Part shown: piece after piece, positions 27,200 through 46,770 of the stretch | How positions within the stretch are numbered: the stretch's first letter is position 1 | Layout of the letters: the number at the start of each line of letters is the position of its first letter | Source: a phage | Direction: 5' to 3' (one strand) | Sequence record: PZ445526.1 | Length of the DNA stretch: 64,000 nucleotides | The notes under the pieces: generated by a model | Told to the model about the DNA's origin: nothing | Databases searched by the model: none | What the model saw: the letters and a program-made list of their open reading frames with translations, nothing else | Program-made: the position numbers and the translations under genes

Positions 27200-30100
27200 A
27201 TGGCTACTTTAAAACAAATACAATTTAAAAGAAGCAAAATCGCAGGAACTCGTCCTGCTGCTTCAGTATTAGCCGAAGGTGAATTGGCTATAAACTTAAA
27301 AGATAGAACACTTTTTACTAAAGATGATTCAGGAAATATCATTGATTTAAGCATTTCCGCTGGCGGTAATATCAGTGGAAATGTAACTATTGATGGAACT
27401 TTACGCGTCAATGGACCAATAAACAATTTTGGAAATTTTTCCACAAGTGGCCAGATTACCGCTGGTAGTAGTATTTCAGCTCAAGTTTTTAGAGCATTGC
27501 AAGGTTCGTTTTATTCAAGAGCTTCAACCGGTGAAACAGCAAATGCCCATTTATGGTTTGAAAATGCCGATGGCACTGAACGTGGCGTTATATATGCTCG
27601 TCCTCAAACTACAACTGCCGGTGAAATACGCCTTAGGGTTAGACAAGGAACAGGAAGCACTACCAACAGTGAATTCTATTTCCGTTCTATAAACGGCGGT
27701 GAATTTCAAGCCAATCGTATTTTAGCATCAGATTCGTTAGTAACTAAACGCATTGCGGTTGATACTGTTATTCACGATGCCAAAGCGTTTGGACAATATG
27801 ATTCTCACTCTTTGGTTAACTATGTTTATCCTGGAACCGGTGAAACAAATGGTGTAAACTATCTTCGTAAAGTTCGCGCTAAAGCTGCCGGAACCATGTG
27901 GCATGAAATCTGTACAGCTCAGACTGGACAAGCTGATGAAATGTCATGGTGGACTGGTAATACTCCTCAGTCTAAACAATATGGTATTCGTAATGACGGA
28001 CGAATTGCTGGACGTAATAGCCTTGCATTAGGTACATTCACTACAAATTTCCCGTCTAGTGATTATGGTAATGTCGGTGTAATGGGCGATAAATATCTTG
28101 TTCTCGGTGACACTGTAACTGGCTTGTCATACAAAAAAACTGGTGTATTTGATCTAGTTGGCGGTGGATATTCTGTTGCATCTATTACTCCAGATAGTTT
28201 CCGTAGTACTCGTAAAGGTATATTTGGTCGTTCCGAGGACCAAGGCGCAACTTGGATAATGCCTGGTACAAATGCTGCTCTCTTGTCCGTTCAAACACAA
28301 GCTGATACTAACAATGCTGGAGACGGACAAACCCATATCGGGTACAATGCTGGCGGTAAAATGAACCACTATTTCCGTGGTACAGGACAGATGAATATCA
28401 ATACCCAACAAGGTATGGAAATTAACCCGGGTATTTTGAAATTGGTAACTGGCTCTAATAATGTACAGTTTTATGCTGACGGCAATATTTCTTCTATCCA
28501 ACCTGTTAAATTAGACAACGAATTATTTTTAAATAGTTCTAATAATACCGCAGGACTTAAATTTGGCGCCCCTAGCAAAGTTGATGGAACAAGAGCTATC
28601 CAATGGAACGGTGGTACTCGCGAAGGACAGAATAAAAACTATGTGATTATTAAAGCATGGGGTAACTCATTTAATGCCACTGGTGATAGATCTCGCGAAA
28701 CGGTTTTCCAAGTATCAGATAGTCAAGGATATTATTTTTATGCTCATCGTAAAGCTCCAACCGGCGACGAAACTATTGGACGTATTGAAGCTCAGTTTGC
28801 TGGAGAACTTAATGCTAAAAGTATTAATGCCGTCGAAAATTTTAAAGTTAATGGATTAAGCACTTTAGTCGGCGGAGTTACAATGAGCAATGGGCTTAAT
28901 TTAACCGGCGGTTCTTCTATTACTGGACAAGTTAAAATAGGCGGAACATATGATGCGTTAAGAATTTGGAACTCTCGTTATGGCGCCATTTTCCGTCGCT
29001 CAGAAACATCATTACATATTATCCCAACTAATGAAAATGAAGGGGAAAACGGTGCAATAAACAACCTTCGTCCGTTTAGTATTGAGTTAGGCACCGGCAC
29101 AGTTTCTATGTTACATGATGTTCATTTAGGAAATTCCGGATCTTCTACAGGATTATTACAAGTAAGTAATAGTCTTAAAACTATTAAAATGATATGTCCA
29201 GTGACTATTAATGAACGCAATGCAGCGCTTACCCTGGATTCTCCTTCATCTTCTTCTGCTAATTATTTACAGGGTTCTAAAGCTGGAACTAAATCGTGGT
29301 ATGTTGGTCTTGGTGGCGCTGGAAATGATTTATCGCTTTATAGCCAATCTTATGGACATGGTCTTGTTATAAGCGATAATTTCGTGTCAATTAGTAAACC
29401 TCTTAAAGTTGGAAATGCACAACTAGGAACTGACGGTAATATTACTGGTGGTTCTGGTAATTTTGCTAACTTGAATACCACGTTAAATCGTAAAGTTAAT
29501 TCTGGATTTATTACTTATGGAGCAACCTCTGGATGGTATAAGTTTGCAACAGTAACAATGCCACAATCCACTTCGACAGCCTTCTTTAAAATAGTTGGAG
29601 GTTCTGGATTTAATAGTGGATTATTCACCCAATGTAATATTGCTGAAATTGTTTTACGTACTGGTAATGAAAGACCTGCTGACTTAAATGCTGTATTATA
29701 CACAAGAACAATTGGAGCTGCATTTAAAAATATTGCAGTTAATAACGTCTCTGGAGATACATATGACATCTATGTTTATGCTGGAACATATTGTAATCAA
29801 TTAGCTTGTGAATGGGCATGTACTGAAAACGCTACTATTAGTGTTATTGGTATTAACTCATCTACACAATCACCTGTAGATGATCTTCCAGATACAGCAG
29901 TTAACGGTCAAGTTGCTAATGTTCTTAATAACTTGGTTGATAGCGGTAAAGGTAAGCGTTATGAAGCCGAGTCTGAAATAGCTATTAATAGCCAAACCGG
30001 TATTCGTATCAGAAGCAATGCCGATAAAACTGGTTCTGTAGCTACAATGTTACGAAATGATGGCGGTAGTTTTTATATTCTGTTTACAGATAAAAATGAC

Positions 30101-30931
30101 ACCGATGGCGCAGCAACTGTTAATGGTGAGTGGAATAGTAAACGTCCTTTCGCAATTAACTTAACAACCGGCGAAGTGATGATGAATAATGGCATAGCTG
30201 TTCGCAGCGCTGCTTTATTCTATAATAGCATAAACGTCAAAGATAATGGTTCTATTAACTTTGATAAATCAGGTGCTAACCCGAGAAATATGAGAATATT
30301 TCATGCTGGCGATGCTTCTCGCGGTAACCGTATTGAAATTGCCGATGAAACTAATTATATTGCTTACTTTGAAAAAGCTCCAGGTGGAGCTAACCGCTTT
30401 GTAGTAAATAATGCTACTGTATCTGGTGTTAATCAAATGAATTCATTTGGTGTCAATACATCAAATGCTCTCGGTGGAAACAGTATAACATTTGGTGATA
30501 CCGATACTGGTATTAAGCAAAATGGTGATGGATTATTAGACATATATGCGAACAACGCACAAGTATTCCGTTTCCAAAACGGCGATTTGTACTCATACAA
30601 AAATATAAATGCTCCAAACGTTTATATTCGTTCTGATATTCGTTTAAAATCCAACTTTAAGCCTATCGAAAATGCACTTGATAAAGTTGAAAAACTTAAC
30701 GGTGTCATTTATGATAAAGCTGAATACATCGGTGGAGAGGCAATTGAAACTGAAGCGGGTATTGTGGCTCAAACGCTACAAGACGTTTTACCAGAAGCCG
30801 TCCGTGAAACAGAAGACAGCAAGGGTAATAAAATACTCACTGTTTCTTCTCAAGCCCAGATTGCTCTTCTGGTTGAAGCTGTGAAAACGCTTTCTGCTCG
30901 TGTAAAAGAACTTGAATCTAAACTTATGTAA
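27200..30931 (+). CDS. 37: Long tail fibre distal subunit gp37 with C-terminal intramolecular chaperone-like domain, 1243 aa
   Basis: AAGAGGA SD; gene order; C-terminal SDIRLKSNF...[11 protein letters not shown] resembles self-cleaving fibre chaperone domains. Confidence 0.92.
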
Positions 30932-30932
30932 A

Positions 30933-30950
30933 AGAGGGCTTCGGCCCTCT
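30933..30950 (+). other. Stem-loop between genes 37 and 38
   Basis: agagggc-ttcg-gccctct hairpin immediately after the gp37 stop and before the gp38 SD. Confidence 0.5.
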
Positions 30951-30961
30951 AAGGATTTTTA

Positions 30962-31744
30962 ATGGCAATTGTAGGTGTTCCTGGCTGGATTGGTGAATCT
31001 GCCGTGAATGAAACTGGACAACGCTGGATGGATGCTGCGATGAGAGAAGTTCGTGTTTCAGTTCCCGGTTGGATGAGTTCAATGGCTGGGCAATCTAAAG
31101 AGATTCATTATAGCATTGGTGCTAGCAATTCTTACAATAAAGACACACTAATAAACTGGATAAAAGCCCAAGGAAGCACTCCTGTTGTTATTACTATTAC
31201 AGGAAATATTGTTTCTCAATCTACTGGTGTTCCATGCTTAGATTTTCCTAGCTCATTAACTAATGCATATGTTACGTTGATCATTAACTCAGGTGTGACT
31301 GTTTACGGACGCGGTGGCAATGGTGGTAGTAACGCTGCTGGTGCTGCTGGTGGTAACGCAATTAATAATGGCATCGGTACACGCTTGCGTATTACGAATA
31401 ATGGTGCAATCGCTGGAGGTGGCGGCGGCGGCGGCGGCGGTAACAGGGGTAAACTAATATTTGGTGGTGGCGGTGGTCGCCCATTCGGTGCTGGTGGGTC
31501 TTCCTCTCATATGAGTTCCGGTGCAACTGCTGGCACCATTTCCGCTCCGGGTAAAGGATCTGTTGGTGAGGGGTCTCTTAGCGCATATACAGGCGGCGCG
31601 GGCGGCAACGTTGGTGCTGCTGGAGGAAGATGTAATACTCAAGGTAACGGTACAGAATATAACGGCGGCGCAGCAGGTAAAGCTGTTACTGGTAATGCTC
31701 CAACTTGGACTAAAGTTGGTACAATATACGGTTCAAGAGTATAA
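30962..31744 (+). CDS. 38: Tail fibre adhesin gp38 (T2/T6 type, glycine-rich), 260 aa
   Basis: Conserved N-terminus then Gly-rich blocks including GGGGGGGGGN separated by variable segments. Confidence 0.88.
   Translation: MAIVGVPGWIGESAVNETGQRWMDAAMREVRVSVPGWMSSMAGQSKEIHYSIGASNSYNKDTLINWIKAQGSTPVVITITGNIVSQSTGVPCLDFPSSLTNAYVTLIINSGVTVYGRGGNGGSNAAGAAGGNAINNGIGTRLRITNNGAIAGGGGGGGGGNRGKLIFGGGGGRPFGAGGSSSHMSSGATAGTISAPGKGSVGEGSLSAYTGGAGGNVGAAGGRCNTQGNGTEYNGGAAGKAVTGNAPTWTKVGTIYGSRV
31415..31441 (+). repeat. GGN trinucleotide repeat, (GGC)6 flanked by GGT, encoding polyglycine in gp38
   Basis: ggaggtggcggcggcggcggcggcggt read directly. Confidence 0.85.
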
Positions 31745-31775: not shown

Positions 31776-32432
31776 ATGGCAGCACCTAGAATATCATTTT
31801 CGCCCTCTGATATTCTATTTGGTGTTCTAGATCGCTTGTTCAAAGATAACGCTACCGGGAAAGTTCTTGCTTCCCGGGTAGCTGTCGTAATTCTTTTATT
31901 TATGATGGCGATTGTTTGGTATAGGGGAGATAGTTTCTTTGAGTACTATAAGCAATCAAAGTATGAAACATACAGTGAAATTATTGAAAAGGAAAGAAAT
32001 GCACGCTTTGAATCTGTCGCCCTGGAACAACTCCAGATAGTTCATATATCATCTGAGGCAGACTTTAGTGCGGTGTATTCTTTCCGCCCTAAAAACTTAA
32101 ACTATTTTGTTGATATTATAGCATACGAAGGAAAATTACCTTCAACAATAAGTGAAAAATCACTTGGAGGATATCCTGTTGATAAAACTATGGATGAATA
32201 TACAGTTCATTTAAATGGACGTCATTATTATTCCAACTCAAAATTTGCTTTTTTACCAACTAAAAAGCCTACTCCCGAAATAAACTACATGTACAGTTGT
32301 CCATATTTCAATTTGGATAATATCTATGCTGGAACAATAACCATGTACTGGTATAGAAATGATCATATAAGTAATGACCGCCTTGAATCAATATGTTCTC
32401 AGGCGGCCAGAATATTAGGAAGGGCTAAATAA
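31776..32432 (+). CDS. t: Holin T, 218 aa
   Basis: 218 aa, single TM segment VAVVILLFMMAIVWY, recognised as T4 holin; strong SD. Confidence 0.9.
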   Translation: MAAPRISFSPSDILFGVLDRLFKDNATGKVLASRVAVVILLFMMAIVWYRGDSFFEYYKQSKYETYSEIIEKERNARFESVALEQLQIVHISSEADFSAVYSFRPKNLNYFVDIIAYEGKLPSTISEKSLGGYPVDKTMDEYTVHLNGRHYYSNSKFAFLPTKKPTPEINYMYSCPYFNLDNIYAGTITMYWYRNDHISNDRLESICSQAARILGRAK

Positions 32433-46497: not shown

Positions 46498-46770
46498 TTA
46501 ATTAAATAGTGGAGCGATACGTTTCAGAAGAGTAGCAACACCTTTAGCGAATTTTACATCATGAAAAACAGTTTCTTCTTCTGTAACAACACGAACTTTA
46601 ATATTTTCGCAATCCCAATTTTTGCGAACAATCTTCAAAAGCTGTAGTAAATCTTTACATTCAGCAATATCAATAACACATCCACGAGAATCTTCCATTA
46701 TCGCACGATAACCGTAAGCCATACCATAATCGTTGAAAGATTGTTCGATGATGATGATTAAGTTTTCCAT
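46498..46770 (-). CDS. Hypothetical protein, about 90 aa
   Basis: ATG at 46770 preceded by GGAGAA (track start TTG at 46782). Confidence 0.55.
   Translation of the reverse strand: MENLIIIIEQSFNDYGMAYGYRAIMEDSRGCVIDIAECKDLLQLLKIVRKNWDCENIKVRVVTEEETVFHDVKFAKGVATLLKRIAPLFN

Follow-up and report, generated by a model that had tools for sequence, protein, structure and literature searches.

The DNA analysed here, referred to below as the window, is a single stretch of 64,000 nucleotides of phage origin (sequence record PZ445526.1). Gene 38 lies on the plus strand at 30962..31744 and encodes gp38, an adhesin of 260 amino acids. Directly upstream is gene 37 (27200..30931, plus strand), which specifies the distal subunit of the long tail fibre (1243 aa; Peptidase_S74, Gp34_trimer and gp37_trimer); its product has a C-terminal intramolecular chaperone domain and a tip that is capped by gp38. 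The holin gene t follows at 31776..32432 on the same strand (T-holin, 218 aa; PF11031, 1.9e-117). The order gp37-gp38-t is that of Tequatrovirus, and the surrounding 24 kb shows 94-95% identity to several Tequatrovirus genomes.

The gp38 protein is letter-for-letter identical to that of Enterobacteria phage K3 (UniProt P07876; CAA29074.1). K3 is the classical OmpA-specific T-even phage (PMC3157838). From work on K3 and S16, a single gp38 subunit sits on the gp37 trimer and recognises a protein of the outer membrane, which is OmpA in the case of K3 (PMC3157838, PMC6851490). In the phage collection that was searched, which does not include a K3 genome, the DNA closest to gene 38 was that of PaulHMueller, at only 95%; the window may therefore come from K3 or from another phage with this allele. 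The exact K3 gp38 protein was absent from the contig index that was searched. A preliminary description, made from the sequence alone, had named the gene as the gp38 adhesin, and this assignment was borne out by Pfam GP38 (PF05268; 3e-71, 240.1 bits against a cut-off of 25, aa 47-260), by Gp38_N (PF21721; 4e-18, 65.4 bits, aa 1-42) and by chain D of PDB 6F45. The latter, S16 gp38 (6f45_D), was matched by HMMER at 7e-50, and PP01 gp38 (9v85) was also matched.

An AlphaFold2 (AF2) model of K3 gp38 has a mean pLDDT of 92. When it was submitted to Foldseek the only significant structural neighbours were 6F45 (6f45_D; E = 1.7e-21, TM 0.80/0.84) and 9V85 (TM 0.75/0.87), and the model displays the three domains of this fold, namely an N-terminal helical attachment domain, a beta-helix and a polyglycine-II (PGII) sandwich. 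The family alignment reveals five glycine-rich motifs (GRMs) alternating with four hypervariable segments (HVSs). Invariant columns are G116 R117 G118 G119, G152-G157, G169 G171 G172 P174 G176, G212 G214 G215, and G236 G239 A241 G244, with variable stretches in between. This arrangement agrees with the earlier statement that glycine-rich motifs frame hypervariable receptor-binding loops (PMC3157838, PMC12032242).

Direct reading of the 64-kb window shows that positions 31415..31441 on the plus strand are GGAGGTGGCGGCGGCGGCGGCGGCGGT, that is, GGA GGT (GGC)6 GGT. Codon 152 starts at 31415, and the nine in-frame codons specify aa 152-160 of gp38, all glycine, in the context ...NNGAIA-GGGGGGGGG-NRGKLIF.... 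The perfect (GGC)6 core occupies 31421..31438 (plus strand), and Tandem Repeats Finder extends it to 31440 (31421-31440, period 3, 6.7 copies, 100% matches). Over the whole 64 kb, a search by regular expression identified it as the sole perfect non-homopolymer trinucleotide repeat of at least 5 units, the runner-up being (GAT)4 at 46747. The (GGC)6 run in gp38 is therefore confirmed by the sequence, by Tandem Repeats Finder and by the scan, as is its place within a longer polyglycine block, here nine consecutive residues.

Upstream of the array, GRM1 (GRGGNGG, aa 116-122, 31307..31327, plus strand) corresponds to the first PGII helix pair, as judged from the alignment and PMC6851490. Immediately downstream lies HVS2 (NRGKLIF, aa 161-167, 31442..31462, plus strand), a distal receptor-binding loop which by alignment is loop B of PP01 gp38. 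The next glycine array, GGT GGT GGC GGT GGT (aa 168-172, 31463..31477, plus strand), starts the motif GGGGGRPFG, which is GRM3 of Trojet. In relatives this second array is the partner of the nine-glycine array in deletions and duplications of HVS2 (L055, L116, P0097, P0092, P0120).

A structural or regulatory role for the repeat as RNA or DNA was considered and rejected. The fold energy around the repeat is no better than that of shuffled sequences (z = -0.67), and on the repeat itself no promoter-like or terminator-like site and no Rfam family match were found. The sole minus-strand ORF nearby (31454-31642) does not overlap the run and is without support.

HMMER aligned the K3 glycine run residue for residue with GGGGGGGG of S16 gp38. 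In S16 the segment 151-GGGGGGGG-158 is PGII helix 3, the long central helix of the three-layered polyglycine-II sandwich, the backbone hydrogen bonds of which are saturated by neighbouring helices according to Dunne and Leiman (PMC6851490). The conserved Ile is separated from the RPF motif by 22 residues in both K3 and S16 gp38, and the ninth glycine of K3 therefore falls where HVS2 opens in S16. Trojet 2011 distinguishes five GRMs, and the nine-glycine block is GRM2 of that scheme, because HVS2 in that scheme includes T6 residues 167 and 168, which lie just after the block. No viable phage was obtained when the whole of GRM2 was deleted from T6 (PMC3157838). The adjoining loop is a determinant of host recognition: the HVS2 changes Q167R/M168I allow T6 to grow on Yersinia (PMC3157838), PP01 requires its loop B (Q161-V170) in order to adsorb to the OmpC of O157 (PMC12892980), and evolution experiments with PP01 gave Y159H, Q161H and N163H in gp38 (PMC6027323).

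As homology to S16 and PP01 gp38 and a confident model show, the nine glycines form the central PGII helix, which connects the beta-helix body with the distal tip and passes there into the HVS2 loop. In the AF2 model residues 151-160 have a pLDDT of about 98, the highest along the K3 gp38 chain. The preliminary description had treated this stretch as a linker, the length of which could vary. A counterpart of S16 PGII helix 3, with its saturated hydrogen bonds and this level of model confidence, does not fit that description; by homology and prediction the block is instead a packed core element that positions HVS2.

The purity of the (GGC)6 core depends for its significance on the codon usage with which it is compared. 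In window genes outside gp38 the glycine codons are used in the proportions GGT 0.475, GGA 0.315, GGC 0.15 and GGG 0.06, and under this null six or more consecutive GGC among nine glycine codons have P = 3.5e-5. In the same block of 54 other distinct alleles the proportions are GGT 0.494, GGC 0.432, GGA 0.069 and GGG 0.005; under this second null a pure run of at least six is expected in 5.5% of alleles, and it was observed in 5/55, among them (GGC)7 in L006 and (GGT)7 in L027 and L043. Comparison of the two nulls thus indicates that what is non-random is the block of nine glycines and the family-wide preference for GGT/GGC, not the purity of the K3 run.

The isolates nearest to K3 keep all nine codons and differ in third positions alone. 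The array of 310Ecol104PP, GGA GGT GGC GGC GGC GGT GGC GGC GGT, is one synonymous T/C change from that of K3; PaulHMueller has (GGC)5 GGT (GGC)2 GGT, and several IMG/VR relatives have GGA GGT GGT GGC GGC GGT GGC GGC GGT. With this codon usage and a neighbour one step away, a pure run such as that of K3 is to be expected occasionally from synonymous drift. The DNA repeat would then be a by-product of nine glycines written in the family's choice of GGT/GGC only. We considered whether the purity of the K3 run might be a sign of recent slippage and rejected this, since about 5% of alleles are expected to have such a run and a single synonymous change separates it from a sister array. As a separate observation, 37/55 alleles have no pure run longer than two units, the expectation being about 0.30-0.36; because the alleles share ancestry and are not independent of one another phylogenetically, we do not rely on this figure. 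An excess of interrupted arrays might reflect selection against pure repeats. An interrupted array is present, for example, in 236Ecol005PP (GGA GGT GGT GGC GGT GGT GGC GGC GGT).

The length of the block was measured in 349 proteins and 119 loci, which together represent 272 distinct C-terminal sequences; a degenerate DNA pattern for LRI-N-G-I-GGG was used in the search for related loci. Block length is class-specific and tied to the HVS2 class, the classes having 7, 8 or 9 glycines. In the class to which K3 belongs (HVS2 starting NR or NK), 88/89 distinct sequences have nine, including those with (GGC)5 and (GGC)6 arrays. Variants in glycine number amount to seven alleles among the 272 distinct sequences, all in lineages other than that of K3; among the sequences compared, none proved to be a length variant of K3's own allele. 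The comparison of gp38 alleles that the preliminary description had proposed thus shows that repeat number is not invariant across the family and that it changes by whole units.

In four of these alleles the number of tandem units has changed. P0041 / L012 has three glycines where its parent P0040 / L104 has six (1 aa mismatch), through reduction of (GGTGGCGGT)2 to one copy. From P0071 / L105-110 with nine glycines, in which (GGTGGTGGC)3 is present, L029 has gained a fourth copy relative to L107 (12 glycines, 0 aa mismatches) and P0325 / L112 has lost one (6 glycines; 0 nt differences from L107 over 660 flanking bases), so that a series of n = 2, 3 and 4 exists. L021, with six glycines, differs from its parent L020, with eight, by (GGTGGC)3 becoming (GGTGGC)2 (0 aa mismatches). 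The remaining events are losses between short direct repeats: 9 nt in P0032 / L013 (6 glycines against 9 in its parent P0029 / L101-103; 0 aa mismatches), 6 nt in P0286 / L113 (7 against 9 in phage Sf20, L114; 0 aa mismatches to this nearest sampled relative) and 15 nt in P0015 / L011 (4 against 9 in P0140; 5 aa mismatches). L011 is without a closely matched parent among the sampled alleles. The source records are ERR689735 for P0015, SRR21291524 for P0032, ERZ27280761 for P0041, GCA_045000265.1 for P0325 and GCA_047674915.1 for P0286. An apparent 37-nt excess in L105 and L106 was discarded, since the annotated range alone differs and by alignment the gene is that of L107.

All seven DNA-level events are clean gains or losses of whole units, in frame. 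Flanking divergence over 660 nt is 0-2 nt in the best-matched pairs and 7 nt in L113; on the time scale of point substitution, then, these events happened very recently. In an unbiased map that took in all internal indels between allele pairs no more than 5% divergent, most independent events fall within, or are anchored at, K3 aa 151-160. Judged from the aligned alleles, this pattern is the signature of slipped-strand mispairing combined with unequal exchange between short direct repeats. Both processes are well documented in T4. By its nature a tandem array of this kind is liable to slipped-strand mispairing, and it can also exchange unequally with the glycine array next to it; comparison of homologous alleles shows the outcome as gains and losses of units and as deletions or duplications of HVS2. 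Whole-unit slippage within a GRM goes unmentioned in the accessible gp38 literature, and we found no accessible primary text on slippage in tail-fibre trinucleotide repeats. Slippage had been suggested for the K3 array in particular. The homologous arrays are indeed a preferred site of in-frame indels, and to this extent the suggestion holds; their length is nevertheless kept almost constant, with nine glycines in 88/89 sequences of the K3 class.

It might be argued that the array is truly invariant and that the length variants arose as errors of sequencing or assembly, since most of them were seen once only, in a metagenome or Logan assembly, and GC-rich short tandem repeats are liable to PCR stutter. 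We regard this as very improbable. The arrays, at 36 nt or less, are spanned by single reads and are shorter than or comparable to the k-mers used in assembly (141 according to the contig name k141_243190; 31 in Logan assemblies), and the changes in the consensus sequences are clean and comprise whole units. Moreover, P0325 has several NCBI accessions and is present on two contigs, P0286 is likewise on two contigs, and the HVS2 duplications described below are present in deposited isolate genomes (MT515755).

Each length variant is a single tip allele without diversified descendants. The four-glycine allele P0015 gave an AF2 model with a mean pLDDT of 86.8, compared with 92.0 for K3, and of about 62 in the block/HVS2 segment, compared with about 98; this drop fits a disturbed sandwich, AF2 confidence being a poor proxy for mutational effect and the comparison accordingly weak evidence. 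Because nine glycines are found in 88/89 sequences of the K3 class, all variants are tips and the four-glycine model is less confident, the data point to strong stabilising selection on array length in the K3 class, in counts that ignore phylogeny. Length variants would stay rare and young if the length of the helix is held by such selection to that required for packing of the sandwich.

Several facts speak against a fixed length. The natural classes carry 7-9 glycines, and their HVS2 loops range in size from 7 to about 16 residues. Each variant is also the consensus allele of the assembly that contains it; P0325 is known from several NCBI accessions and two contigs, and P0041 from a 162-kb near-complete phage contig. 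Given their consensus status and the repeated records, some variants may be functional and not deleterious. It is plausible that some changes of length are tolerated, insertions especially, as these merely lengthen a loop that already measures 7 to about 16 residues. Several of the variants are on contigs of ~50-110 kb in bacterial assemblies, with plasmid-type genes or plasmid annotation; these contigs are probably phage-plasmids, elements in which selection does not act on adsorption all the time.

The glycine arrays may also owe their conserved DNA similarity to a use as micro-homology, through which HVS cassettes are swapped, deleted and duplicated. We hold this reading, which is compatible with our preferred one, as a tentative possibility at somewhat less than even odds. 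GGT/GGC arrays flank HVS2 on both sides in all alleles, and recombinant junctions fall in glycine motifs in L116, L055, P0097, P0092, P0120, P0034 and P0114. Hybrid junctions inside glycine arrays are found in two independent HVS2 duplications, both in isolate genomes, of 18 aa in L116 (Yersinia phage PYps47T) and 17 aa in L055 (IMG/VR 2974787500), and the two junctions are unlike. HVS2 deletions fuse the nine-glycine array to GGGGGRPF in P0097 (0 mismatches to P0062), P0092, P0120 and P0034, and other deletions join glycine-rich stretches in P0114, P0056/P0058, P0261 and P0068. There are also alleles that are almost the same apart from the HVS2 cassette, such as K3 with NRGKLIF and P0002 with VYGRLSF (94% overall). 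A modular-shuffling model (Tetart 1998, Trojet 2011) is stated in PMC12032242 and PMC3157838, and receptor specificity was changed by exchange in T6 x PST and RB5 x RB32 crosses (PMC3157838). On the other hand, codon order within the array is not conserved between lineages and shared stretches are only about 8-14 nt in length; moreover, the GGT/GGC bias could equally reflect translation, one tRNA-Gly(GCC) reading both codons, or avoidance of G-runs and of Shine-Dalgarno-like GGAGG.

The preliminary description had gone on to propose the repeat as a candidate hotspot of host-range variation. Such a contingency hotspot would be an in-frame variable-number tandem repeat (VNTR) that makes helix 3 longer or shorter at its distal end and thereby moves HVS2 out or in, much faster than point mutation can act; the resulting receptor-binding variants would be used by selection to change host range. 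The array does abut HVS2, a loop that experiments have proved to determine specificity (PMC3157838, PMC12892980, PMC6027323), and block length co-varies with HVS2 class. Five or more allele lineages have independently acquired whole-unit indels at the array, and in the best pairs the flanks differ by 0-2 substitutions; these indels include the three-allele series with n = 2, 3 and 4 of GGTGGTGGC, and the variants are assembly consensus alleles. The K3 array is also among the purest and so, by general slippage rules, among the most mutable. Set against this, no phenotype is attached to any length variant, each variant is a singleton tip without diversified descendants, and the K3 class retains nine glycines in 88/89 sequences despite some having (GGC)5-6. 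Six units are also short for an unstable trinucleotide repeat.

Evolution experiments with PP01 and T2 gave gp38 substitutions only (PMC6027323, PMC12529663), and the helix belongs to the packed core (PMC6851490); furthermore, several variants come from bacterial assemblies or probable phage-plasmids, settings without continuous selection for adsorption, and the four-glycine allele loses model confidence. The documented changes of host range through gp38 are substitutions in HVS loops or exchanges of HVS cassettes (PMC3157838, PMC6027323, PMC12529663). With a near-constant length, published changes of this other kind and no variant tied to a phenotype, the proposal of a host-range hotspot is not upheld, and we judge it unlikely. 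We are equally doubtful that the array is a genuine VNTR in which slippage by 2-5 glycines, mostly by three, which is one PGII turn, repeatedly resets the projection of HVS2 at the adhesin tip. Host-range mutations of K3 and Ox2 from the Henning laboratory reportedly lie in the variable regions and not in the oligoglycine stretches; no accessible primary text on K3 host-range mutants was found in the literature.

The reading that we prefer, with a probability of about 0.8, is that (GGC)6 is coding sequence for the structural core of the K3 receptor-binding adhesin gp38. According to the literature, host range evolves in gp38 mainly by substitution in, or exchange of, the HVS loops that the glycine arrays delimit. 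If the length variants of other lineages are functional and shift receptor use, the number of glycines at the base of HVS2 becomes a tuning knob for phage-therapy adhesins, and tools for receptor prediction must weigh array length besides HVS sequence. Defective variants, on the other hand, would be an example of what it costs in mutations to encode a polyglycine helix. Were the VNTR to prove real, T-even phages and gp38-bearing phage-plasmids would gain a fast and reversible means of retuning receptor binding, and the uninterrupted (GGC)6 of K3 would be a particularly mutable allele.

The closest known counterpart of this gene is K3 gene 38 itself, sequenced by the Henning laboratory in 1987 (P07876), the product of which is 100% identical over 260 residues and which stands in the same gp37-gp38-t order. 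S16 gp38 (6F45) resembles it in the three-domain fold (TM 0.80/0.84), in the aligned glycine block and in the spacing of 22 residues from Ile to RPF; K3 has nine glycines and a 7-residue HVS2 whereas S16 has eight and an 8-residue HVS2, overall identity is 43%, and the receptors differ, being OmpA for K3 (PMC3157838) and OmpC for S16. The oligoglycine stretch of K3 gp38 is thus already known, in sequence since 1987 and in structure, from S16, since 2018.

Simple-sequence contingency loci, which underlie slipped-strand phase variation in bacteria and some phages, have in common with the present locus a perfect short tandem repeat in a gene for surface recognition; polymorphism in unit number among near-identical genomes is seen here at low frequency, in homologous arrays of other lineages. 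They differ in that the present repeat has a 3-nt unit within an ORF, so that neither an on/off frameshift nor a promoter-spacing switch is found; there are only six units, and the variants, known from sequences alone, are rare tips and not a balanced polymorphism. A further parallel is offered by the duplications of His boxes in T4 gp37, which expanded host range (Tetart 1996, cited in PMC3157838). Like the duplicated HVS2 of L116 and of L055, they are in-frame tandem duplications of a small adhesin segment with short repeats at its borders; the HVS2 cases affect another protein and motif and lie outside the K3 window.

A parallel within the family is the GRM/HVS shuffling of Tetart 1998 and Trojet 2011. 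The block is GRM2, between HVS1 and HVS2, and in relatives the junctions of HVS2 deletions and duplications fall within glycine arrays. In those papers the GRMs are described as strictly conserved and as sites of recombination between alleles, whereas here whole-unit slippage is seen in seven alleles. The value added by the present analysis is comparative: the "strictly conserved" GRM2 has rare and very recent whole-unit length variants, and it is the main anchor of in-frame indels among close gp38 alleles.

The nine-glycine array of gp38 (window 31415-31441, residues 152-160) is built almost entirely from two codons. Across all 55 distinct DNA alleles of this block, GGT and GGC together make up 93% of the codons and GGA and GGG are nearly absent, whereas GGA accounts for 31% of the glycine codons in the other genes of the window. 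The longest pure run is two codons or fewer in 37 of the 55 alleles, compared with an expectation of about one third, the alleles being non-independent. Both the codon bias and the shortness of the pure runs could possibly result from avoidance of G-runs or of Shine-Dalgarno-like GGAGG sequences, from the reading of these codons by a single tRNA-Gly(GCC), or from selection against pure repeats.

Larger in-frame losses, of 12-48 amino acids, are seen between nearly identical gp38 alleles (P0114, P0056/P0058, P0261, P0068 and locus L033). In the first four proteins the deletion ends lie in glycine-rich stretches, and the deletions extend from the region following glycine-rich motif 1 (GRM1) to the nine-glycine block, from the first hypervariable segment (HVS1) to the RPF motif of GRM3, or from GRM3 to GRM4. 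The deletion in L033 removes 34 amino acids from the N-terminal domain.

Upstream of the adhesin gene, a hairpin resembling a terminator (AGAGGGCTTCGGCCCTCT and then a run of T; window 30933-30959) overlaps the stop of gene 37 (30931). It begins in the last codon of that gene and extends into the 30-nt gap preceding gene 38, the start codon of which lies 3′ of it at 30962.

At loci L105-L112 the gp38 homologues adjoin a 1129-residue gp37-like fibre on contigs of approximately 50-130 kb from Enterobacteriaceae assemblies (e.g., GCA_011077125.1 JAALAL010000021.1 and GCA_045000265.1 DBBUMV010000031.1). These contigs probably represent phage-plasmids with a T-even-type adhesin. Some are annotated as plasmids, and on one the homologue is adjoined by TacA/acetyltransferase toxin-antitoxin genes. 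Their array has the form (GGTGGTGGC)n, with n = 2, 3 and 4 all found.

Four metagenome contigs (L016, L017, L026 and L032) are approximately 222-229 kb in size. The tblastn match of the 260-residue query covers about 890-930 nt in these rather than 780, which suggests that their gp38 is extended or carries an insertion. Contigs of approximately 224 kb in Salmonella assemblies are also the source of gp38 clusters P0020, P0021 and P0082.

An unexpectedly remote host for a gp38-type adhesin is the marine Bacteroidota species Flagellimonas marina (NZ_JBHSCL010000010.1; L014, 601-1100), whose genome encodes a protein with 45% identity to gp38 residues 1-146. The gp38-like part is followed by a (GGT)-rich block of seven glycines and a long HVS2-like segment.

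In two isolate genomes, Yersinia phage PYps47T (MT515755; L116, 751-900) and IMGVR_UViG_2974787500_000001 (L055, 838-990), YYSPFSQMRLTFGGGGG(G) is present twice, the receptor-binding loop HVS2 and its adjoining glycine array being tandemly duplicated with a gain of 18 and 17 residues, respectively. The two duplications are of independent origin, and the glycine arrays at their junctions are hybrids, unlike each other. Since substitutions in HVS2 of T6-type gp38 allow infection of Yersinia (PMC3157838), the duplication in PYps47T may bear on host range.
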